From Candidatus Paracaedimonas acanthamoebae (lineage in GTDB: Bacteria > Pseudomonadota > Alphaproteobacteria > Caedimonadales > Caedimonadaceae), in the NCBI GenBank assembly GCA_000743035.1, contig CP008936.1:690001-722000 (forward strand): a stretch of DNA of 32,000 nt, read 5' to 3'. A program made the position numbers and the translations under genes. Positions within the stretch are counted from its first letter, which is position 1. Every line of letters starts with the position of its first letter. Of this stretch, positions 11,097 to 32,000 are shown piece after piece. The notes below the pieces were generated by a model. That model had not been told where the DNA came from. It saw nothing but the letters and a program-made list of their open reading frames with translations, and did not search any database.

Positions 11097-11993
11097 ATGT
11101 CACGCACGGATCTTTTATCTGAATTTTGGCTTGATCGTTGGTTGCCTTCGTGGATGAAACCTTATACTCGGCTTGCGCGGTGGGATCGTCCAATTGGTAT
11201 TTTATTATTACTTTACCCAGGGCTTTGGGGATTAGCGCTTGCCTCCACAAGCCTCATACCACTTAAAGAAGTTTTGTTATTTGTTATAGGTACAATCTTA
11301 ATGCGGGGCGCTGGCTGTACATATAATGATCTTGTTGATCACAAGTTTGATGCTCGTGTTTCTCGTACGGCAACTAGACCCTTACCAAGTGGAGAAATCA
11401 CCCATCCTCAAGCCATTATTTTTCTAATCATCCACCTTTTTTTAGCCGCTTTTATCTTATTTTCTTTTTCAACATCTGCAATTCAAATAGGGTTTGTTGT
11501 CTTGATTCTTGTAGCGCTTTATCCTTGGATGAAACGCATTACTTATTGGCCTCAAGCTTTTTTGGGATTAACCTTTAATTGGGGCGTTCTCTTAGGTTGG
11601 GCAGCTTTAAATGGTCAAATATCTATAATACCTTTTCTTTTTTACAGTGCCGGATTCTTTTGGACACTATGCTACGATACGATTTATGCCCACCAAGATC
11701 GAGAAGATGATTTATTGCTAGGTCTTAAATCAACGGCGATCACATTGGGGGATAAAACGCGTCCAGTTTTAAGTTTATTCTTTTTATTGATGATCTTATT
11801 TTTGATTGCTGGTGGGATCAAAGCTGATCTTAAATGGTCTTATCATTTGGTTGTGGCGTTAGTTATTCTCCACGCGCTTTGGCAACTTAAGAAATTAAAT
11901 ATTAATGACTCTTCTAGTTGTTTACAGCTCTTTAAAGCCAATCATTGGATCGGTCTTATTATTTTTATCGGAATTATTCTTGGAAAAAAATAG
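11097..11993 (+). CDS. ubiA: 4-hydroxybenzoate polyprenyltransferase
   Basis: 298 aa and polytopic. It carries the UbiA prenyltransferase Asp-rich motif (GCTYNDLVDHKFDARVSRTATRPLPSG) and a second motif (YAHQDREDD). Confidence 0.92.
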   Translation: MSRTDLLSEFWLDRWLPSWMKPYTRLARWDRPIGILLLLYPGLWGLALASTSLIPLKEVLLFVIGTILMRGAGCTYNDLVDHKFDARVSRTATRPLPSGEITHPQAIIFLIIHLFLAAFILFSFSTSAIQIGFVVLILVALYPWMKRITYWPQAFLGLTFNWGVLLGWAALNGQISIIPFLFYSAGFFWTLCYDTIYAHQDREDDLLLGLKSTAITLGDKTRPVLSLFFLLMILFLIAGGIKADLKWSYHLVVALVILHALWQLKKLNINDSSSCLQLFKANHWIGLIIFIGIILGKK

Positions 11994-12020
11994 GTAAGGC
12001 TTTTATAAAAGCCTTACCTA
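11991..12020. terminator. Perfect 30-bp palindrome, likely a bidirectional terminator between convergent ubiA and the 636-aa gene
   Basis: taggtaaggcttttataaaagccttaccta equals its own reverse complement. It overlaps the ubiA TAG stop and ends 6 nt before the convergent gene's stop codon. Confidence 0.6.
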
Positions 12021-12025
12021 TCATA

Positions 12026-13936
12026 TTATGGATAAACTTCTTTTATAGTAGCGACTAAAACAGCTGCAGTCTTTAGTCCTGGTTGAATTATAGTTTCAAT
12101 TCTTTTCCTCATTGTCATAAGCTTTGTATCTTTAGAGGTCAAGGCCGCATATGCAGAAGCTAGAATTATTTCATCATTTATTTCGAGCTCTTTCTCTTTG
12201 GTTTTGAGCTTATTTTGAATATCTTTAGCTTTGTTTTTATTCTTATTAATCTCAGCTTGAATTTGTATTTCTCGACCATGAATCGTAGCCAAGATATTAT
12301 CTTTAAATTCTTTACCTCCTTTAATTCCTGGATTCAAAGGGATTTCGTCCCCAATTTTGTAAACTTTAGCTTCAAGGACATTGCCACCACCGAGAACAGG
12401 AGCTTTACCAATCCCGGGAGGAGGGGGAGGAACTCCAGGCCCAGCAATCGGCGCAGGTGTTTTATCTTTTATACTTGTAATTGCGCCACGAGTAGTTTTT
12501 TCTGTAGCAGCTGTTAATGCTGGTTTGTTCTCTGATTTTAAAAATTCATTAATGCCAGCTATTGCTGCGCTTGCCTTTTCTTGAACTGAAGCAGCAGGTT
12601 TTGTTTTAAGCTTTTTCATGATTGCATTAGCACCAGCAATTACAGCTTGTCCATCAAGGAATGTGAGCCCTTTTAATGCATTAAAATATTGTAAAGCCTG
12701 TGGTGATGCATCAAGTTCCAAAGCAGCCTTAGGTGCCTTTACTGCCAGCGTAGAACCTACAGCTACCAGTTTTTTAAGTTCTTCTTTTAGTTGAGTATCT
12801 GCGATGTTGTTAATAAGGTCTACTAACGATTGCCTATCGACTTCAACAAGTTTTTTAAATTCATTTTCAGAAAGTTCATGGGTTCCTTTTTTTTGAGGAT
12901 CAATCATTTGACTTATGGTCTGCATTAGCGCAGATGAGTTAGAGGTTCTCATCGGATCTATACCAATCTTATGAAAATAAGAATAAATTGCTTGTATATC
13001 TGACTGAGAAGTTTTCTTAAATAAGCTAGTAAGTTTAGAGAAAGCTTTTTGAACAACGGAAAAATCAAGAGTATTTTTATTCATGAAAACTAAAATAGTC
13101 AGGGGGGATTTTTTAAAGTAAGCTGGATCGCTTTTAAGTAGGGTTGTTAACTCAGTTAGTCTTTGTTGCCCAAAATCTGCCAGACTATCATAATGGGCTT
13201 TCGCCTGCCGTTGATGCAGCTCTTTAAGAATATCTGATTTTTCTAGTATAATATTGATACCCTCCAGCCTTCCTGCATTAGGTGATTTAGTGGTAAGCTC
13301 TAAAATCTTGTTTTCTAAGTCTAAAAGTAACTGGGTACTTCCAGTATTTTCTATCTTTTCAAGCAATGTTTTGAACGTATTAACCTCGATTATACCACCC
13401 TTATTATTAAGTTCTGAGGTAAGTTTATGAGTGTACGTAGTCACTTCTTCACGTACTTTCTTTTCTGCTTCTGGATCTACGGTTAGCGCTCCTTTTCCAC
13501 CTTGGGCAAGTTGCAATCGAAGTTTTGCTATTTCAGCTTCTAGTTTTGAGATGTGAGCTTTAGTTGTCGGATCTTGGGAAGGAACCATCGTTTTTTTGAG
13601 TTCAGTATTCTTTTTCTTAAGTGCTTCAATTTTTGTTTTCAATCGAACAATCTCTGATTCAGGCGTATTATCACCCATTTTATTAATGCTGGATTGAAGC
13701 CCAGAAACTTCTCTTTGAAGAGAGGAACCATTTAAAGCTTGGTGTAACTTTAAAATTTCTGTTTTTAATTGAGAAATTTCTTTCTTTAATTTTTCTTCAT
13801 TTCGAGTATTAGCTGTTGGAGAAGGATTATTCCCAACATTAAGTTTTTTCCAACTTGAGAGAGCGTCTGCATGAAGGTCTATAAAACTCCCAAGTCCTAT
13901 CATGAGTGTGAATAAAGAAACTGAACTTCTTTTCAT
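12026..13936 (-). CDS. Secreted coiled-coil protein with a polyproline tract (uncharacterised)
   Basis: 636 aa with a signal peptide (MKRSSVSLFTLMIGLGSFIDLHADA). Heptad-like K/E/L-rich N-terminal third (EISQLKTEILKLHQAL, LKTKIEALKKKNTELKK, LEAEIAKLRLQLAQ). A GC-rich island encodes PAPIAGPGVPPPPPGIGKAPVLGGG at ~12400-12460. I recognise no family. Confidence 0.8.
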   Translation of the reverse strand: MKRSSVSLFTLMIGLGSFIDLHADALSSWKKLNVGNNPSPTANTRNEEKLKKEISQLKTEILKLHQALNGSSLQREVSGLQSSINKMGDNTPESEIVRLKTKIEALKKKNTELKKTMVPSQDPTTKAHISKLEAEIAKLRLQLAQGGKGALTVDPEAEKKVREEVTTYTHKLTSELNNKGGIIEVNTFKTLLEKIENTGSTQLLLDLENKILELTTKSPNAGRLEGINIILEKSDILKELHQRQAKAHYDSLADFGQQRLTELTTLLKSDPAYFKKSPLTILVFMNKNTLDFSVVQKAFSKLTSLFKKTSQSDIQAIYSYFHKIGIDPMRTSNSSALMQTISQMIDPQKKGTHELSENEFKKLVEVDRQSLVDLINNIADTQLKEELKKLVAVGSTLAVKAPKAALELDASPQALQYFNALKGLTFLDGQAVIAGANAIMKKLKTKPAASVQEKASAAIAGINEFLKSENKPALTAATEKTTRGAITSIKDKTPAPIAGPGVPPPPPGIGKAPVLGGGNVLEAKVYKIGDEIPLNPGIKGGKEFKDNILATIHGREIQIQAEINKNKNKAKDIQNKLKTKEKELEINDEIILASAYAALTSKDTKLMTMRKRIETIIQPGLKTAAVLVATIKEVYP

Positions 13937-13956
13937 ATTATTTTTCCCTACTTATT

Positions 13957-14667
13957 TTAATAGAATCGATATGTATAGCGTACAACAAGAGAATTAATCT
14001 TTGGTTTAAATCGAGTCGTTGTGATAGCGCTTGTTGAGTCTGCCTTTGATAAAGTCATCGAAGAGAAGCGTGTCTGTTTCAGATCAATGCCAATGGAAGA
14101 AGAGTTGTTCCAAGCATATTGATAGGTTAGACCATATTGGAAGCCCGCTTTTTGTTTTGAAACTTTATGAAATTCTTTTCCTACACCATCTTCATGAGAG
14201 CGTGTAAAACGAGCAGATTCAAAACCAAGGATGGTTCCAATAAAATGTTTTTTATGAATAATTGGGCCTAGTCTGAAGCTTCCGCCAAAAGATCTTTTTG
14301 TTTGTAATCTCTCTGTAAGATAAAATCCAATACCTGGTTGAATCTCTAAATCGTGGCGAATTCTATGGTTAAGAGATGAAAAAGCATAAAATCCTTCAAA
14401 ACTTATTCCTAATTTATCTTGGTAGAAAGGGAGGAAATAGCCTAGAAAGGCTTCGCCTCTCTCTGAAGTATTACTAATGGAAGCACCTTTGCTGAATTGG
14501 AACATTGTTCCATCATTACTTACATGCCAGTCCGAACGCTTTCCTTTAAAAGAGGATCCACCTAATGAAACGCCTGCATAAAATCCTTTTTGAAATCCTT
14601 CGTTAGCATTTGCAGTATAGGCGATACAACTAATACCAATTAAAAGTGATAGCATTTTATTTTTCAT
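13957..14667 (-). CDS. Outer-membrane beta-barrel protein (OMP_b-brl / OmpA-TM-like)
   Basis: 236 aa with a signal peptide (MKNKMLSLLIGISCIAYTANA), alternating hydrophobic/aromatic beta-strand pattern and a C-terminal YTYRFY (terminal aromatic). It lies 20 nt upstream of the 636-aa gene. Confidence 0.8.
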   Translation of the reverse strand: MKNKMLSLLIGISCIAYTANANEGFQKGFYAGVSLGGSSFKGKRSDWHVSNDGTMFQFSKGASISNTSERGEAFLGYFLPFYQDKLGISFEGFYAFSSLNHRIRHDLEIQPGIGFYLTERLQTKRSFGGSFRLGPIIHKKHFIGTILGFESARFTRSHEDGVGKEFHKVSKQKAGFQYGLTYQYAWNNSSSIGIDLKQTRFSSMTLSKADSTSAITTTRFKPKINSLVVRYTYRFY

Positions 14668-14936
14668 AATTATCTCCTTAAATTAATTCTTTTGATTTAT
14701 TTAAGCAAAAAGTTATTAACAATTAGTTTCTACAACTTGATATCTGAAGATAGATAAAACTGATTTTTTGAATAAGTTTTTAGTTTATTAAGAGATAAGC
14801 TTATTTTGCTTTGACTTTTTCTGCTTTTAGTTTGAGCTGCTGTTGTCCAAGTTTTTTTAACTGTTTTCCAAGACACTTGAATATAATGGTCTAATTGGCT
14901 GCTTAGTATTCTGATTTCAAGGTATGATTTAGATCC

Positions 14937-15137
14937 TTAGATACGATCTTGATGCTTAAAGTTGTCAATGACCAGCTCTCCTGAAGGTTTTATTTCTGGT
15001 AGCCTTTTCTGGATGCCAGCTAATTTATAGTGATCCATGTCTTTAAAACAGAAAGAGGGACATAGATACGTATCCTCTAATTTAAGACTGCAGATACAAC
15101 ATTTTATTTTCATACTTATAGACATGAAAATCTTCAC
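14937..15137 (-). CDS. Small Cys-rich hypothetical protein (doubtful)
   Basis: 66-aa ORF beginning 16 nt after the ligA stop on the same strand. It has a CCICS...CPSFC cysteine cluster. Start is GTG with internal ATGs. No family recognised. Confidence 0.3.
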   Translation of the reverse strand: MKIFMSISMKIKCCICSLKLEDTYLCPSFCFKDMDHYKLAGIQKRLPEIKPSGELVIDNFKHQDRI

Positions 15138-15153
15138 TGTTTATCGTCATCTA

Positions 15154-18908
<3,755 letters not shown>

Positions 18909-22940: not shown

Positions 22941-23076
22941 ACAAAAGTCTATAATGGTTTAGACTATATAACTAAATCAGAGTCCAGGTCCAGTCGTATA
23001 GCCTTCTTGGCAGTCCAAAAGCCTTGCAGGGAGCGTTTGTAGGAAATGGTTTTTGGAATCTGACTGGAGAAAAAGT

Positions 23077-23442
23077 ATGAATAATGAATTGTTTGTTGGT
23101 AACTTGTCTTTTACAACATCTGAGCAAGACTTAGCGGCTTATTTCGAAGCAATAGGTCCGGTTGAATCTACAAAAGTGATTAAAGATCATCGCACAGGTC
23201 GGTCTCGTGGCTTTGGCTTCGTAAAAATGGTTAATGAAGCTGATGCAAAAAAGGCAATTGCTGACTATGATGGCAAAGATTTCTCAGGTCGTACCTTAAA
23301 AGTAAATATTGCAGGTGCTGGAGGTGAGGGAGGTGAACGCCGTAATAGTGGTGGTCCTCGTTTCAATAATAGAGGTCCTCGTGAAGGTGGCGGTCGTTCC
23401 TTCTCAAGAGGGGGAGACTTTGGAAGCCGCGGTTCTTACTAG
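23077..23442 (+). CDS. RRM-domain RNA-binding protein with a Gly/Arg-rich (RGG-like) C-terminal tail
   Basis: RNP-2 is LFVGNL and RNP-1 is RGFGFVKM. The tail is GAGGEGGERRNSGGPRFNNRGPREGGGRSFSRGGDFGSRG. The track starts at TTG 23053. The ATG at 23077 sits 6 nt after the GGAGA Shine-Dalgarno (23066-23070). Confidence 0.88.
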   Translation: MNNELFVGNLSFTTSEQDLAAYFEAIGPVESTKVIKDHRTGRSRGFGFVKMVNEADAKKAIADYDGKDFSGRTLKVNIAGAGGEGGERRNSGGPRFNNRGPREGGGRSFSRGGDFGSRGSY

Positions 23443-24783: not shown

Positions 24784-24991
24784 AATATTTAAAAGGTATA
24801 TTTAAGAGGTTGTGAGAATATAGTTATGAGACATGTCAATGCAACACTTTGCTGAATATCTCATATTGTATACTTTTTGGTACATTTGAGGGACACAGCT
24901 ATATCAGTTTATTAAGCAATAGTATTTCACCTTCATTAATTCCAGCATAAACCCTAAAGTATATGAATTGTTAGATTATGGAGGTATGTGC

Positions 24992-25501
24992 ATGACAGAA
25001 CAAACTGATGATGATTTATCCATTGCTTCATTCAAAGATCAAGATACTAGAACTCTTGGCTTGGAGCAGTATAAACTGGTAGTTGAGTCAATCAATAAGA
25101 GTAATGATATTCGAGAACTCTCTAACAGCTATTGGATAACTGTTAATTCCTTAGGAGTATCAGCTGCTGCTTATATAAAAGACGCGAGCTCTCTTTCTCA
25201 TAACCATAAACCTTTAGTTTTATGGTTCATTATAGCCTTAGGTATAGTTCTATGCTTAAGTTGGCTTAACTTTCTTATGACAATTAAAAATAGTATTGAA
25301 CTGCGAAATAATCTTCTACTTGAAATGGAGAAGTACTTTCCTTTCAAAGCTTTTACAAAAAGCATTGCTGTATCAGGACGCCAGCAAGGTAAAGGATCTC
25401 TTACAATAAAAGAGATGATTCTACCTTGCTTATTCTTAATAAGCTATTTTGCTTTAGGATATTTTCTACTGTTTTACCAAGGTGAAGTTATTCGAAGTTA
25501 A
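24992..25501 (+). CDS. Small integral membrane protein (about 3 TM) with a soluble N-terminal helix, possibly RipA-like
   Basis: GGAGG at 24980-24984 sits 7 nt before ATG 24992 (the track starts at TTG 24968). The N-terminal motif is LEQYKLVVESINKSNDIRELSNSYWITVN. Hydrophobic segments are SLGVSAAAYI, LVLWFIIALGIVLCLSWLNFLMTI and MILPCLFLISYFALGYFLLFY. The family assignment is from memory only. Confidence 0.65.
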   Translation: MTEQTDDDLSIASFKDQDTRTLGLEQYKLVVESINKSNDIRELSNSYWITVNSLGVSAAAYIKDASSLSHNHKPLVLWFIIALGIVLCLSWLNFLMTIKNSIELRNNLLLEMEKYFPFKAFTKSIAVSGRQQGKGSLTIKEMILPCLFLISYFALGYFLLFYQGEVIRS

Positions 25502-25523: not shown

Positions 25524-25988
25524 ATGGACTATAATAAGAATGTTGGTAAGATAGAAAATCACGCTCTCTTAATTGCTAATAGCTCGGTTGCTAGAGTTTA
25601 TGAATTAAAAGGTCTTAAGCTTGGTAAGCTCATTTTTAACTTAAGTGCTTCTGAGACTATTATTGAGCATCAAAATGAAGGGCGAAGAGATAATTTTTCA
25701 CAGAGAATGAGCACTCCGGGTAGTTTTCTGGACCCTCATCAAGAAGCAAGAGAGATAAATAGAGCTAATTTTTCAAAAGTAATTTCAGATAAATTACTTA
25801 CGTTATATCAACATCATCCTTTTAACGCTCTTACTATAATCGCAGAACCAAAGGTATTAGGTGACTTAAGATCATACCTTAATAAAGATATTATTTCACT
25901 TGTACATGCTGAAATTGTAGAAAATCTTTCTCATTATGACGCGCAAGCTATCGAGAAGCATTTAACGTCTTTTCAAAGACGTCAGTAG
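25524..25988 (+). CDS. Host_attach (PF10116-like) / bacterial eRF1-like (baeRF1) domain protein
   Basis: 154 aa. HALLIANSSVARVYELKG...NEGRRDNFSQRMSTPGSFLDPHQEAREINRANFSKVISDKLL...FNALTIIAEPKVLGDLRSYL...AEIVENLSHYDAQAIEKHL follows the Host_attach consensus layout. Shine-Dalgarno GAGGA lies upstream, and the gene begins 22 nt after the preceding gene. Confidence 0.75.
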   Translation: MDYNKNVGKIENHALLIANSSVARVYELKGLKLGKLIFNLSASETIIEHQNEGRRDNFSQRMSTPGSFLDPHQEAREINRANFSKVISDKLLTLYQHHPFNALTIIAEPKVLGDLRSYLNKDIISLVHAEIVENLSHYDAQAIEKHLTSFQRRQ

Positions 25989-26012
25989 AAAATACTAGAA
26001 TTGGATATGATG

Positions 26013-26041
26013 AAAATAGGTTTAGATTTAACCTATTTTTA
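26013..26041 (+). terminator. Rho-independent terminator after the Host_attach-like gene
   Basis: aaaataggtt (26013-26022), a 7-nt loop, then aacctatttt (26030-26039) running into T residues. The stem is AT-rich. Confidence 0.5.
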
Positions 26042-26299
26042 AAAACATAGATTACGAAGAGGTTCTAATCTTGTAGTTTAGGTCAAGAATTAATACTTAG
26101 GAACTCTTGACTCTAAACATAATATACACTCACCCGGATTCTAAAATTCCTATGATCTGGTTTTCAAGGGGTTGAAAACGAGTATAAGAAAAAGTATGTA
26201 GCATAAGCACATAAAAGTGTTTAGATTAATTAAATTATTATACTTTTTTATAAAGTATTTACCATAATTAGATATTTAACTTAAAAATGGTACTATTAA

Positions 26300-26532
26300 G
26301 TTAACTAAAGAAAGTTAGAATTGTGAGTTAGAGAGTTTAAATGCCCATTTCTATGACGTCTTATCAAATGGCCAGAGAGCAATGGCCTCTTATACCAAGG
26401 CTCAAAGCCTTTACAAAAGTTATCGACAAAATAAAACAATCTATCATAATCTATCAACATTGAGGTAGCTCCCTATCGTTTTACAAATAGAGAATATCTC
26501 ATACCCTTTTTAGCTTAAACACCCCTCTTAAA
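26300..26532 (-). mobile_element. Truncated, degraded IS982-family copy (left end plus 5' transposase fragment), inverted relative to the full copy at 28597
   Basis: The reverse complement of 26461-26532 is aagaggggtgtttaagcta..tatgagatattctctatttgtaaaacgatagggagctacctca. It aligns with 28621-28690 of the full IS. Similarity continues, with indels, to ~26300 against IS position ~28830. The reading frame is broken (atg aga tat tct cta ttt gta aaa cga TAG). The outermost ~24 nt of the 27-bp terminal IR are not recognisable. Confidence 0.75.
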
Positions 26533-26785
26533 ATAATAATAAAATAACCAATAACGCTTGCTACAATAATTAAGCTTTTCTAAGCTCTACTTAGTATGTT
26601 TTCCTTTATTTACATTCGAGTTAAATGAACAAAATCAAGTATTGCAAATCAATACAATTTAAAACCTTCTCTTAAAATTTGTTATGCAATAAATAAAGTA
26701 GAATAGTTGTCTCTCTTTAACCTTAAAAATATTTCTTATTGATGGTTACTTAATAAGGTAGTTAACTAATCGAAAGGTATTACAA

Positions 26786-27061
26786 TTGTTTCATCAAAAT
26801 AAGATATTCCCCCTAGATCCTAAAAAATTTGAGATTAAAGAACTCACCTCTCAAGAACCCATCATCCCTCTTCAACCTGAAAGCCGTCAATCCATCGATG
26901 AAAAAAGAAATCTCAATAATCCTAAACCAATTGATGGCCAAGAGCCTCAAGATCGAAGAAAGAAAACGTCAATTTTAGAAGACATACCAAACCCTAATCC
27001 CAATAAAAACCCTAGGGATAATTGGGATGAAAACCATCCTATTCATCCTCTTATAGATTAA
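26786..27061 (+). CDS. Small Pro/Asn-rich hydrophilic hypothetical protein (TTG start)
   Basis: 91-aa ORF with AAAGG 8 nt upstream of the TTG. It is low complexity (PNPNPNKNP) with no hydrophobic segment. It would be the first ORF of a putative three-gene unit with the DUF378 gene. Confidence 0.4.
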   Translation: MFHQNKIFPLDPKKFEIKELTSQEPIIPLQPESRQSIDEKRNLNNPKPIDGQEPQDRRKKTSILEDIPNPNPNKNPRDNWDENHPIHPLID

Positions 27062-27095
27062 ATGATTTCAATAAATTTTATGTATGGAGGTTAAA

Positions 27096-27332
27096 ATGAT
27101 TACTGAAAATTATAGACGTTCTATTAATACGAAATCAGGAGAATATTATTTAAAGTTAGTTGCTAACATATTAACTCTTATTGGTGCCTTAAATTGGGGC
27201 TTAATTGGGATCAATAACTTTAATCTTGTAGCCTACCTTTTTAATCCCACTTTAAGCCGTATTATATATACGATCGTTGGTATATCTGGAATTTATCTTT
27301 TAATTAAATTATTTATAATAAGGAAACTATAA
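27096..27332 (+). CDS. DUF378-family small membrane protein
   Basis: LTLIGALNWGLIGINNFNLVAYLF...LSRIIYTIVGISGIYLL matches the DUF378 signature (GALNWGLVG...LV...YxxVG). GGAGG sits 5 nt upstream of ATG 27096 (the track starts at 27084). Confidence 0.8.
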   Translation: MITENYRRSINTKSGEYYLKLVANILTLIGALNWGLIGINNFNLVAYLFNPTLSRIIYTIVGISGIYLLIKLFIIRKL

Positions 27333-27592
27333 TGATAAAAAAATTACTTATAATCTCATCAATTGTTACGCTCGGCTGTGTACCAATATTGAAAGCAGGG
27401 GTAATTAATGTCCGAAATGAAAATAATAAAGAACTACTAATAAAAATTGAAGCTGTTGGAGATAGCTCAGCTGGTTTAAAACAAACAATTCCAGCTGAAT
27501 ATATTTCTTCTTTCACCATCAATTCAGATCAACTGAACGGTAAGACCAACTTTATAATAAAGATTATACAGTTACTTTCACAACAGATATAG
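27332..27592 (+). CDS. Small secreted or lipoprotein-like hypothetical protein, probably frameshifted near its 3' end
   Basis: Its start overlaps the DUF378 stop (TAATG). It has a signal-like N-terminus (MIKKLLIISSIVTLGCVP). The other forward frame stays open from 27544 to a TAA at 27646-27648, just before a strong hairpin (see findings). Confidence 0.5.
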   Translation: MIKKLLIISSIVTLGCVPILKAGVINVRNENNKELLIKIEAVGDSSAGLKQTIPAEYISSFTINSDQLNGKTNFIIKIIQLLSQQI

Positions 27593-27657
27593 TAGGAATA
27601 ACATGTATCGCTGAAGAAAGTTCTTTAATTAGAAATGTAATTAAGTAAAGCAAGTTT

Positions 27658-27695
27658 GTGCTGCAATTTTACGCCTCACTGTAAAATTGCAGCAC
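27658..27695. terminator. Perfect 14-bp-stem hairpin, a candidate terminator
   Basis: gtgctgcaatttta (27658-27671), a 10-nt loop, then taaaattgcagcac (27682-27695). There is no clean T-run on either side. Confidence 0.45.
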
Positions 27696-28218
27696 AATTA
27701 CTCTTATCAATTAATGAAATTTGATCAATTGCCAATGAAGTTAAAAGCTTTATAATTTTTATCACTTTATTTTAAAAAAGCCAAATGGCATTATTTAGAG
27801 AATCCTTTTAATTTCTTTATAGAAATATTTTAAGCTATAAGAAGATTTATTTAGTATAGTTTGTGGTTTTTCAGCGTCATATCTATCATATTTTGGATAA
27901 AGTCTGTGTAAACTTTTAGTAGTTGCATAATGTTTTTTTTCGCTATTTCCTATCATTTTTGAACCTTTCTTATTGAATATGGCACCTAACTATTCAACTA
28001 TAAGTAAATAGACAAAATTTTATGATGGGAATAATTAATATTTTTTAACAAAATAGTTGAATATAACTATTTGACCATTGAATTTTAATAAAAAAATTAA
28101 TAATGTTATTATATGTTTAATTTTATATTAAATTATCAACTTTTATTGATGTATATATCATCATACTTTTAAATTGTTCAGACTAAATTTGTTCAACTAC
28201 AATTTAAAGGAATTAATC

Positions 28219-28530
28219 ATGACTACACGTAAAGACGCTACACAAAATTCTCACAATAAAGAACATGGCAAGCAAGGATTTGCTTCTATGTCTAAAGAGA
28301 AAGTAAAAGAAATTGCTAGCAAAGGCGGTCAGTCACATGGAAAAAAACAGGACGAAAATAGCTCAAATAGGAGCAGCTCGTCATCTTCACACACAAACCA
28401 ATCACGTAATGAGCATCATGGCAAGCAAGGATTTGCTTCTATGTCTAAAGAGAAAGTAAAAGAAATTGCTAGCAAAGGTGGTCAATCACATGGAAAAAAC
28501 CATGACTCAAATAATAATCGTGATAGATAA
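28219..28530 (+). CDS. KGG-repeat general-stress protein (YciG/GsiB-like)
   Basis: Two copies of HGKQGFASMSKEKVKEIASKGGQSHGK (the KGG stress-induced acidophilic repeat) in a hydrophilic protein. AAGGA Shine-Dalgarno precedes ATG 28219 (the track starts at TTG 28174). Confidence 0.85.
   Translation: MTTRKDATQNSHNKEHGKQGFASMSKEKVKEIASKGGQSHGKKQDENSSNRSSSSSSHTNQSRNEHHGKQGFASMSKEKVKEIASKGGQSHGKNHDSNNNRDR
28264..28499 (+). repeat. Intragenic direct repeat, two 83-bp copies (28264-28346 and 28407-28489... see evidence)
   Basis: catggcaagcaaggatttgcttctatgtctaaagagaaagtaaaagaaattgctagcaaagg[c/t]ggtca[g/a]tcacatggaaaaaa occurs twice, starting at 28264 and at 28407, and the second copy ends near 28499. 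The two copies differ at only two positions, both synonymous third-codon positions. Confidence 0.9.
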
Positions 28531-28549
28531 TTTATCATATTAATTTTAA

Positions 28550-28582
28550 AAAGCGTACCAATAATAAGGTACGCTTTTTTTA
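28550..28582 (+). terminator. Rho-independent terminator of the KGG-repeat gene
   Basis: agcgtacc (28552-28559), loop aataataa, ggtacgct (28568-28575), followed by a run of seven T residues. Confidence 0.75.
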
Positions 28583-28596
28583 TTGTGTTGTAAGAA

Positions 28597-29570
28597 CTTA
28601 ATTTAACCTGAGTTGCGTTTAAGAGGGGTGTTTAAGCTAAGAGATGTATGAGGTATTCTCTATTTGCAAAAAGATAGGGAGCTACCTCAATGTTGATAGA
28701 TTATTTTTGTTTGTCGATGACTTTTGTAAGGGTTTTGAGTCTTGGTATCAGAAGCAATTGCTATCTGATCGTTTGATAAAGCGCCATAGAGATGGACATC
28801 TAAAATTATCAGAAGTACTGACAATTCTGATTGCATACCATCAATCTGGGATGGCTTGTTTTAAATACTTTTACTTGGACTTAAGCTCTTATTATCGTCA
28901 TTTGTTTCCAAGGCTTGTTCATTATGCTCGTTTTATCAAACTCATTAAGCAAGCCTTCCCAGCCCTTGTTTGCTTACTCAAAAGTCTAGTAGGAGAGATC
29001 ACAGAATATTTATTCATTGATTCTACCCCCATGGCTGTTTGCCATAATTTGCGAGAGAAGAAGCACAAGGTCTTTAAGGGATTGGCTACGAAAGGAAAAA
29101 CTTCAACAGGGTGGTTTTTTGGTTTGAAGATTCATTTGATCTTTAACACCCATGGTGAAATTATTCATCTTGCTATCACCCCTGGAAATGTTAACGACAA
29201 AACACCTGTGGCAGAAATGGTCAAAGGTATAACAGCTAAACTCATTGGAGATAAAGGATACCTCTCTCATAAACTCTTCCAACACTTATTTGAAAATGGG
29301 ATCACACTCTTACCAAAATTAAGAAAAATATGAAAAACATCCTTATGGATACAGCAGATAAACTCATGTTGATGAAAAGATCTTTTATAGAAACTATATT
29401 TTCTTCTCTCAAATCATTGAATACCTTAATCCATCACCGACATCGATGCCCAATCAATGCTTTTGCTCATCTTTTTGCTCGGCTTATTAGTTATCAACTC
29501 AGGACTGACAAGCCCTCTTTGCATAATCTCACAACGCTCATCACTTAAACACAACTCGGGTTAAGTAAAG
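28597..29570 (+). mobile_element. IS982-family insertion sequence, full length (~974 bp) with a frameshifted transposase
   Basis: The 27-bp terminal inverted repeats match at 23/27 positions: IRL cttaatttaacctgagttgcgtttaag (28597-28623) and IRR cttaaacacaactcgggttaagtaaag (29544-29570). They enclose an IS982-type DDE transposase. No flanking target-site duplication is evident. Confidence 0.85.
28644..29548 (+). pseudogene. IS982-family DDE transposase split into two ORFs (28644-29333 and 29330-29548) by a 1-nt frameshift
   Basis: FVDDFCKGF, IDSTPMAVCHN, GWFFGLKIHL, LIGDKGYLS, then KLRKI* / MKNILMDTADKLMLMKRSFIETIFSSLK...HHRHRCPINAF. Intact IS982 transposases read through ..RKNMKN.. here. 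One extra A in the A5 run (29322-29326) would restore the frame. Confidence 0.8.
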
Positions 29571-31462: not shown

Positions 31463-32000
31463 TTAACCAGAAGTCCCAACATCTGGTATTGATGGTATTA
31501 ACAATTCTTGGAATGTATTGATGCCAGCAGTATCTTCATCATCTAAAATTTGTTGATCAAATAACTCAGCTCGTTTACCACTATAAAGTAATAAGTTCGC
31601 TTTGGAGAATGCCCCCTTCAAAATTTGTAAACGCTCATTTAAATGAGGATGTATTGGAGTTAATTCTAAAAGATTTTTACTAAGATTAACTTCTTTAATT
31701 TCCTTTAGAGAGTTAGGCATATCATCAATTGCTGGTTTTAAGTGGTGGCGCCATTCAAGACCAGTATTCTGAAGGTTCAGCTTTTGAAGGTAAGCCATGT
31801 CTTTCAAGCTAGAAAACACCAACTTTAAGTCATAGATTAAATTATGGTTACTTTGTAGGTTTAATGTACGAAGCCCTTTCATCTTTGACAATGTTTTTGC
31901 AAGTTTTTTAGCATATTTATTATCTTGTCGCCATGCAGGAAGAGTAAATTCTTCAATAAGATGGATATCTTCATAGCTTCGTATCTCTTTAAAGCGTGCA
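31463..32000 (-). CDS. Leucine-rich-repeat protein, C-terminal part. The N-terminus lies beyond the window end.
   Basis: LRR units are LRTLNLQSNHNL, LQKLNLQNTGL and IKEVNLSKNLLEL. The track starts it at TTG 31891. Hand translation shows the frame stays open upstream to position 32000 (..ARFKEIRSYEDIHLIEEFTLPAWRQDNKYAKKLAKTLSKMKGL..), so the gene is probably longer. Confidence 0.75.
   Translation of the reverse strand, partial: ARFKEIRSYEDIHLIEEFTLPAWRQDNKYAKKLAKTLSKMKGLRTLNLQSNHNLIYDLKLVFSSLKDMAYLQKLNLQNTGLEWRHHLKPAIDDMPNSLKEIKEVNLSKNLLELTPIHPHLNERLQILKGAFSKANLLLYSGKRAELFDQQILDDEDTAGINTFQELLIPSIPDVGTSG

Follow-up and report, generated by a model that had tools for sequence, protein, structure and literature searches.

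The window analysed here is an AT-rich stretch of 32,000 nt (35.8% GC) from the genome of Candidatus Paracaedimonas acanthamoebae (contig CP008936.1, positions 690,001 to 722,000), whose minus strand carries an alphaproteobacterial block of lpxC-bamD-recN-ligA, with ubiA, a UDG-family gene and chpT close by. Alongside this block lie two co-oriented genes, 20 nt apart as the original prediction made from this DNA had stated, one for a small outer-membrane protein (OMP) and one for a 636-residue protein that we call X. The same prediction placed the pair as an insertion between ubiA and ligA, which is accurate within the window; in relatives, a DUF1003 gene also separates ligA from the OMP gene. 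The features of the pair are listed below in the order of transcription, with the confidence of the structure model given as the predicted local distance difference test (pLDDT).

13957–14667, minus strand: OMP gene, 236 aa, an open reading frame (ORF) with AAGGAG 7 nt ahead of the ATG
13937–13956, minus strand: intercistronic spacer of 20 nt, in sequence with AGGGAAA, resembling a ribosome-binding site (RBS), before the start of X
12026–13936, minus strand: gene X, an ORF of 636 aa for an exported, all-helical modular protein (stop codon 12026–12028)
13865–13936, minus strand: X residues 1–24, Sec-type signal peptide MKRSS / VSLFTLMIGLGSFI / DLHA↓DA, read by eye
13574–13864, minus strand: X residues 25–121, variable spacer with heptad (coiled-coil) helices
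12761–13573, minus strand: X residues 122–392, family-defining domain consisting of a zipper helix (123–144) and a helical globular domain
12467–12760, minus strand: X residues 393–490, accessory helical segment with high pLDDT
12368–12466, minus strand: X residues 491–523, disordered Gly/Pro-rich linker (pLDDT 27–36) with the core GPGVPPPPP
12029–12367, minus strand: X residues 524–636, C-terminal helical bundle of ~95 residues ending in YP (pLDDT 80–92)
11989–12022, minus strand: intrinsic terminator with a 15-bp stem and a T-run, 4 nt past the stop codon of X and back-to-back with the end of ubiA

Judged by this layout, with an RBS before each gene, a terminator after X and no terminator-like site found between the OMP gene and X, the two genes look like a single bicistronic operon. 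Rfam and tRNA scans of the window gave no matches.

Architecture and distribution of X and its partner

X had been described as a protein of no recognised family, and our searches bear this out: Pfam and NCBIfam scans returned coiled-coil noise only, PDB sequence searches with the X profile and with the C-terminal 164 residues gave no significant match, and Foldseek with the full-length model found no PDB match at E<0.1. A Foldseek match in BFVD (E 1.5e-4) was rejected as a long-helix artefact (TM 0.07–0.11, root-mean-square deviation 49 Å). Among the PDB sequence matches, the heptad region of X resembles a designed coiled coil (E 0.007); this match, together with VAMP2 (E 0.12) and an aIF2-gamma fragment (E 0.43), was set aside as compositional or too short. 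A SNARE-like reading based on VAMP2 was also discarded, the match being driven by the Pro-rich N-terminus and the model of X showing short packed helices in place of a single long heptad helix with an R/Q layer at its centre.

When 1.84 billion representatives were searched exhaustively with HMMER, six proteins only were recovered, namely window X, a fragment of P0007, a fragment of the C-terminal domain (P0010) and three distant full-length proteins (P0009, P0011 and P0012) that have residues ~120–390 in common with X. Among GTDB species representatives and in JGI metagenomes, scans showed no members beyond those known; a metagenome scan with the P0009 domain found no relatives, the A1 scan returned two already-known contigs only, and a word-indexed search with the central-domain profile gave two known members and none new. 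The nearest named relatives are from 'Caedibacter sp. 38-128' and a metagenome-assembled genome (MAG) of 'Ca. Paracaedimonas acanthamoebae', and the close homologues (42–72% identity) come from Caedimonadaceae-type amoeba symbionts with the same synteny, the gene order in all of them being lpxC-bamD-recN-ligA-DUF1003-OMP-X with ubiA convergent. By phyletic distribution, X is thus restricted to a few symbiont-type alphaproteobacteria and, on these sequence comparisons, the family is real but rare.

The AlphaFold2 (AF2) model of X, built from a seven-sequence alignment, consists entirely of helices, with a mean pLDDT of 70.8. Signal peptides of both proteins were judged by eye from a charged n-region, a hydrophobic core of 14–15 residues and an AxA-like site; the cleavable signal peptide predicted for the 636-aa product is there, with its hydrophobic core and the AxA-like LHA↓DA, and it is kept in all homologues, signal-peptide-like N-termini being found in P0009, P0011 and P0012 as well. 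A long heptad-rich N-terminal region had also been claimed: heptads exist, with L, I, V or M at 83–100% of a/d positions in four of the five helices tested, but they are confined to residues ~47–144, the rest being a globular all-helical domain. The spacer at residues 25–121 is mostly deleted in P0005 and P0007. Best conserved is the family-defining domain at residues 122–392 (88–90% identity in the nearest homologues, 46–72% in the other three), which is also the region matched in the distant full-length proteins; within it, residues 155–392 mostly have a pLDDT of 70–89, and the zipper helix stays below 50. The accessory segment that follows is mostly gone in P0007, and P0009, P0011 and P0012 do not have it. 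The C-terminal bundle is 46–58% identical among orthologues, occurs in P0010, and is net basic (K+R 18, D+E 13); in P0009 and P0011 an unrelated beta-rich domain with the ending VTNR takes its place, and P0012 has no such domain. The C-terminus itself reads [YL]P in six of seven close homologues (window 12029–12040), with P0007 ending in LS and the high-GC fragment P0010 in FP.

At the sequence level, the 236-aa product of the upstream gene is a small outer-membrane beta-barrel and an ordinary member of the OMP_b-brl superfamily. It matches the Pfam profile OMP_b-brl (PF13505) at E 1.2e-4 along profile positions 6–175 of 175, although its 22.7 bits fall short of the gathering score (28.7), and five of the six scanned members of its family match the same profile (best E 1.1e-8). 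Its N-terminus is a signal peptide, MKNKMLSLLIGISCIAYTANA↓NE, with the AxA-like site ANA↓NE; a strand scan shows about ten amphipathic strand-like segments, in keeping with a barrel of about 8–10 strands, and the chain has an aromatic end, RYTYRFY. A PDB sequence search with the OMP gave no match.

The pairing of X with a small OMP, which had been suggested from this window, recurs at unrelated loci. P0011 sits between truB and rnhA (locus L007), and the gene directly upstream of it is homologous to the window OMP over its full length (hhalign probability 95%, E 2.7e-8). PNPase puts the L007 organism among alphaproteobacterial MAGs, and the OMP-X pair is absent at the equivalent site in its close relatives, including the nearest genome that has a long contig (1.46 Mb). 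P0012 (L008 515–2896) follows a gene that scores 28.8 bits against OMP_b-brl, at the gathering score, and whose stop codon is directly followed by the start codon of P0012. P0012 has five tandem coiled-coil repeats of ~29 residues (PEALAAAKAQNEDLTRRLEEMTRQAD) before the conserved domain. P0009, whose spacer is Pro-rich, has an upstream gene of 286 aa in a neighbourhood with bamA, skp, lpxD, fabZ, lpxA and lgt. An OMP beta-barrel gene is therefore directly upstream of X in two of two distant relatives with readable DNA, and the best evidence for a joint function of barrel and X is that they stay adjacent in unrelated surroundings. We found no paper describing the pair in the literature; the protein family of X and the OMP-X module are both undescribed.

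No other gene of the syntenic block evolves as fast as X, which changes at three to six times the rate of its neighbours. Its identity to the orthologues at loci L001, L002 and L005 is 67, 42 and 54%, compared with 75–78% for the OMP, 82–90% for BamD and LpxC, and 85–91% for LigA and RecN. Within X, divergence is greatest in the N-terminal spacer and in the C-terminal domain, and the proline core stays constant. The DUF1003 gene, which separates ligA from the OMP gene in every relative, survives in the window as a remnant (14853–15161, minus strand) in which only residues ~1–115 and ~199–224 are recognisable and the transmembrane core is deleted; this pseudogene lies directly upstream of the intact pair. 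A retained, fast-changing and modular protein such as X appears, on these sequence data, more typical of a host-facing factor than of a housekeeping envelope part.

The Gly-flanked proline run

A GC-rich island encoding a proline tract had been reported near the end of gene X, and it is confirmed by the composition of positions 12386–12460, at 62.7% GC against 35.8% for the window. This value is reached by 0.03% of 75-nt segments, and the maximum (65.3%) falls in the segment that begins at 12383. The peptide PAPIAGPGVPPPPPGIGKAPVLGGG is encoded at about 12380–12455, with the five Pro codons of the core GPGVPPPPP at 12416–12430. From the composition of X, about 1e-4 runs of at least five prolines would be expected by chance, and when the window and ten related loci (~170 kb) are translated in all six frames, every run of at least four prolines falls in an X homologue. 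The disordered proline segment is one of several stretches of X with a pLDDT below 50.

Conservation of the tract in orthologues, which the original prediction had made a test of its own reading, is pronounced, and the reading survives this test. Residues G499, P500 and P503–P507 are invariant in all seven orthologues, which are 42–72% identical overall; Pro505–507 remain invariant once distant members join the alignment, and a run of at least five prolines is found in every full-length member, including relatives that are 21–26% identical. Since the proline codons vary synonymously among homologues (CCT, CCC, CCA, CCG), selection acts on the amino acids and not on a DNA repeat. Moreover, polyproline stalls ribosomes, is deleterious and may tune expression (PMC11611912), and given this cost of translation the retention of the run implies a function.

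Around this constant core the family varies widely. There is one run each in window X, P0002, P0005, P0006 and P0012; two in P0003, P0004 and P0007, from tandem duplication of a GPGVPPPPPL-type unit; and three to four FH1-like units in P0009 and P0011, the P0011 unit being GHGAPPPPPPPP. Across the family there are thus one to four runs per protein, each of five to eight residues and Gly-flanked, always at the same position in the architecture, while the length of the linker around the unchanged core ranges from about 17 to 60 residues. P0012 terminates 8 residues past PPPPP, with no continuing ORF. Peptides carrying the run that may serve as candidate ligands are GPGVPPPPPGIG and (GHGAPPPPPPPP)3. 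In P0011 (L007 6601–8097), one repeat reads PPPPGHR, the same sequence as the motif of the CD2 tail to which GYF domains bind; a PPG-hydrophobic pattern is not conserved in the family.

As for the class of ligand, the original prediction had named EVH1, SH3 and profilin-type readers together, and two of these are not supported. An ActA-type EVH1 ligand is at odds with the residue before the run, which is V or A in all members and never aromatic, and the specificity residues of an SH3-type ligand (PxxPx+) are not conserved. Readings as GYF (PPG-hydrophobic), WW (PPLP) or SH3 ligands each fit some members and none is conserved.

Possible roles of the pair

Tandem G/A-PPPPP units are profilin ligands in FH1 domains and VASP. 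With a probability that we put at roughly 40%, X would be a barrel-anchored, host-facing protein that presents a proline ligand of this type. In such a scheme, the conserved central domain of X would dock onto the partner barrel at the outer membrane, which would explain the constant co-occurrence of both parts, and the short zipper and coiled-coil helices might oligomerise X. The disordered proline module, shown to the host cytosol, would act as a short linear ligand rather than as a spacer; its constant core against a variable linker, its retention when the downstream domain is swapped and its near-C-terminal position in P0012 all point to a ligand. The module would bind a host proline-recognition protein. 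Profilin or profilin-actin fits best here, since the motif has the shape G/A-PPPPP, no aromatic residue comes before it and distant members repeat it in tandem as FH1 domains do. The variable C-terminal domain may supply a lineage-specific second activity. Ca. P. acanthamoebae is a cytoplasmic symbiont of Acanthamoeba with a genome of 1.7 Mb and 38% GC (PMC11909080), and Acanthamoeba profilin is routinely handled by poly-L-proline affinity (PMC2120189).

Several points weigh against this proposal. Surface exposure and host binding of X are inferences from sequence, and we know of no export route in which a barrel of ~230 aa serves a separate helical protein of 600 aa. The barrel fold was not recovered in a single-sequence AF2 model of the OMP, whose pLDDT is only 29.9. 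A single run of five prolines, as in window X, is at the weak end of profilin binding, and the residues flanking the run are too variable to name the reader domain. WH2 and FH2 were not found in nine family members (E≤1), and no actin-binding module was detected. Among the organisms with distant members, one sample is a tropical soil metagenome, and P0012 adjoins a GGDEF-EAL gene. An actin-specific role, in line with the host-cytoskeleton interaction that had been suggested for the pair, is hypothetical, and the chain shows no element that would support it: no WH2, no FH2, and no central or acidic region with the conserved Trp for Arp2/3, the sole Trp of X being residue 29. A WH2 look-alike, ILATIHGRE, was dismissed; it has no LKKV, is one residue out of register and forms a helix within the modelled C-terminal helical domain.

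By analogy, the functionally closest systems would be Sca2, BimA, ActA and RickA, and X is a member of none of them. Rickettsia Sca2, a surface protein with a signal peptide and a mostly all-helical build, recruits profilin-actin through its proline-rich domains (PMC9569871). It resembles X in belonging to alphaproteobacterial cytosolic bacteria, in its cleaved Sec signal peptide, in its mostly helical build with proline-rich segments among the few disordered parts, and in that neither protein resembles eukaryotic nucleators in sequence (PMC9569871). It differs in being a type Va autotransporter, a formin-like assembler of actin, with its own C-terminal translocator barrel of ~280 aa in the same chain, whereas the partner of X is a separate upstream OMP_b-brl gene; X is also one-third the size, with no detectable similarity in sequence or fold and no known actin-binding activity or motif. 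Nor does the pair have the layout of other type V systems: X ends in a helical bundle (EVYP) and matches neither Autotransporter nor YadA_anchor, which speaks against types Va and Vc, and the OMP, at 236 aa and with OMP_b-brl only, is no Omp85-type TpsB with POTRA domains as in two-partner secretion (type Vb). With Burkholderia BimA and Ena/VASP, X shares a G/A-PPPPP motif, a potential oligomerising coiled coil and an association with an outer-membrane barrel, but it has no WH2 or GAB, no trimeric-autotransporter anchor, another order of elements and no homology.

The disordered, Gly-flanked runs of five to eight prolines, with tandem copies in P0003, P0004, P0007, P0009 and P0011, are also reminiscent of formin FH1 domains and of the (GPPPPP)3 segment of VASP. 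Window X, in contrast, has a single five-proline run, and neither FH2 nor EVH2 follows; in place of an FH2 domain or FH2-like crescent fold, for which Pfam gave no FH2 match and Foldseek no PDB match at E<0.1, the run is followed by the helical bundle, the beta-rich domain or nothing. Listeria ActA and Rickettsia RickA are surface proteins of cytosolic bacteria whose proline-rich motifs engage the host actin machinery (see also PMC9569871). In ActA, FPPPP is an EVH1 ligand ([FWYL]PPPP with acidic flanks), in contrast to the Val or Ala before the run of X, and RickA has WH2, central and acidic regions that X does not have. A bolder form of the proposal, in which OMP and X are a new non-autotransporter surface-display pair of cytosolic protist symbionts, with a dedicated small barrel that exports X or keeps it at the surface and an FH1-like module that captures host profilin-actin, or another proline reader, and so builds or reorganises actin around the bacterium, strikes us as improbable on the present sequences.

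The run could instead serve as a spacer. X may be a periplasmic envelope tether or ruler, held by the barrel, with the polyproline helix spanning the distance to the peptidoglycan or inner membrane, in the manner of TonB, TolA or OmpA hinges divided over two genes; we regard this as a rather unlikely account, though it has the best claim among the alternatives. Pro-rich hinges are common in OmpA and TonB, and X resembles these proteins in its exported or anchored N-terminus, elongated helices, Pro-rich stretch, small C-terminal domain and link to an outer-membrane barrel. Its Sec signal peptide with no recognisable outer-membrane translocation device, its tight coupling to the OMP, a helical and coiled-coil build like that of periplasm-spanning proteins, and the envelope genes around P0009 all fit this reading. 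However, homology to housekeeping periplasmic proteins, which the original prediction had named as grounds for giving up its own view, was not seen: there was none to Tol-Pal, TonB or flagellar proteins, no similarity to TonB_C, TolA or OmpA_C in any member, and the C-terminal domains, searched by themselves, matched neither TonB_C nor TolA domain III even at E≤10. The N-terminus of X looks like a cleavable signal peptide rather than a transmembrane anchor. The run consists of proline alone between Gly flanks and not of (EP)n, (KP)n or (AP)n, its core is invariant while the linker varies more than threefold in length, P0012 ends right past it, leaving nothing to space, and the C-terminal domain is swapped or lost. 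The family is furthermore rare and patchy, being absent at the equivalent site in close relatives of the L007 organism, and the rate of change of X is unlike that of housekeeping envelope parts.

Less probable still, in our view, is that X is an infection protein stored in the periplasm and released or exposed at entry, escape or transmission, with the barrel as a retention or release partner and a target that need not be profilin or actin. There is precedent in the Holosporales, the wider group of protist symbionts that also includes Holospora, for signal-peptide-bearing periplasmic proteins that are secreted or exposed to the host in infection (PMC9866348; PMC11909080), among them the 89-kDa periplasmic protein of Holospora obtusa with its two actin-binding motifs (PMC9866348). 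The signal peptide, fast evolution, modularity and lineage restriction of X would suit such a role. On the other side, no homology to the 89-kDa and 63-kDa Holospora proteins was seen in the exhaustive search, in a comparison made without the Holospora sequences themselves, and no partner barrel is reported for them; none of the six HMMER proteins could be linked to a characterised protein, the database entries being nameless and Holospora not specifically excluded. No infectious-form differentiation is described for Paracaedimonas in a recent review (PMC11909080), and an obligatory barrel partner is explained no better than by host-facing display.

That the run has no ligand function at all, being an incidental product of low complexity or slippage or a translational element dependent on elongation factor P (EF-P), seems very improbable to us. 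The variable copy number and length of the tract and the ability of polyproline to stall ribosomes and tune expression (PMC11611912) would fit such an origin. Against it stand the retention of at least five prolines down to 21% identity, synonymous codon differences that leave no conserved DNA repeat, the fixed architectural position and the lack of any other run of at least four prolines in the ~170 kb surveyed; a stalling element, moreover, would need neither Gly flanks nor tandem FH1-like units.

Surroundings of the pair and implications

Elsewhere in the window, several features lie at some distance from the pair. The region at 26000–28600 has a GC content of 27–30% and only short ORFs (≤118 aa), with null Rfam and tRNA scans. 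Two consecutive ORFs of 229 and 72 aa (28644–29548, plus strand) may, as read by eye, be a split transposase; the motif DRLFxFVDxFCKGFExWY at the N-terminus of this ORF pair recurs 2 kb upstream in a 51-aa fragment (26305–26460, minus strand), and the two may be degraded insertion sequence (IS) copies. A small protein encoded at 28174–28530, among the short ORFs of the low-GC region, has two copies of a KGG-type repeat (HGKQGFASMSKEKVKEIASKGGQSHGK), and a 142-aa ORF (31463–31891, minus strand) looks leucine-rich-repeat-like by eye. Three further genes on the plus strand encode an RRM_1 RNA-binding protein (23053–23442), an 8xMP membrane protein (24968–25501) and a Host_attach/baeRF-family protein (25524–25988); a Host_attach gene is also found near pnp in the relative L009.

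For host interaction in the Holosporales, a 2025 review names only the type VI secretion system and some proteins of Holospora that go by their molecular weights (PMC11909080), and since the basis of this interaction is almost unknown, OMP-X matters as a candidate. It is a concrete one: the only short linear motif that never varies in the module is a proline ligand of eukaryotic type, and the bacterium that carries it lies naked in the cytoplasm of Acanthamoeba. Should X stay in the periplasm, it would represent a new envelope tether family, and either way OMP and X merit family definitions, X having had none so far. If the motif binds profilin, actin-assembly mimicry would extend beyond autotransporters and injected effectors, and one would have to ask by what means a small barrel can present a passenger that is a separate chain. 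If the pair does reorganise host actin, it would be the first actin-assembly factor of this sort among Holosporales, and bacteria would have a further, structurally new way of mimicking actin assembly.

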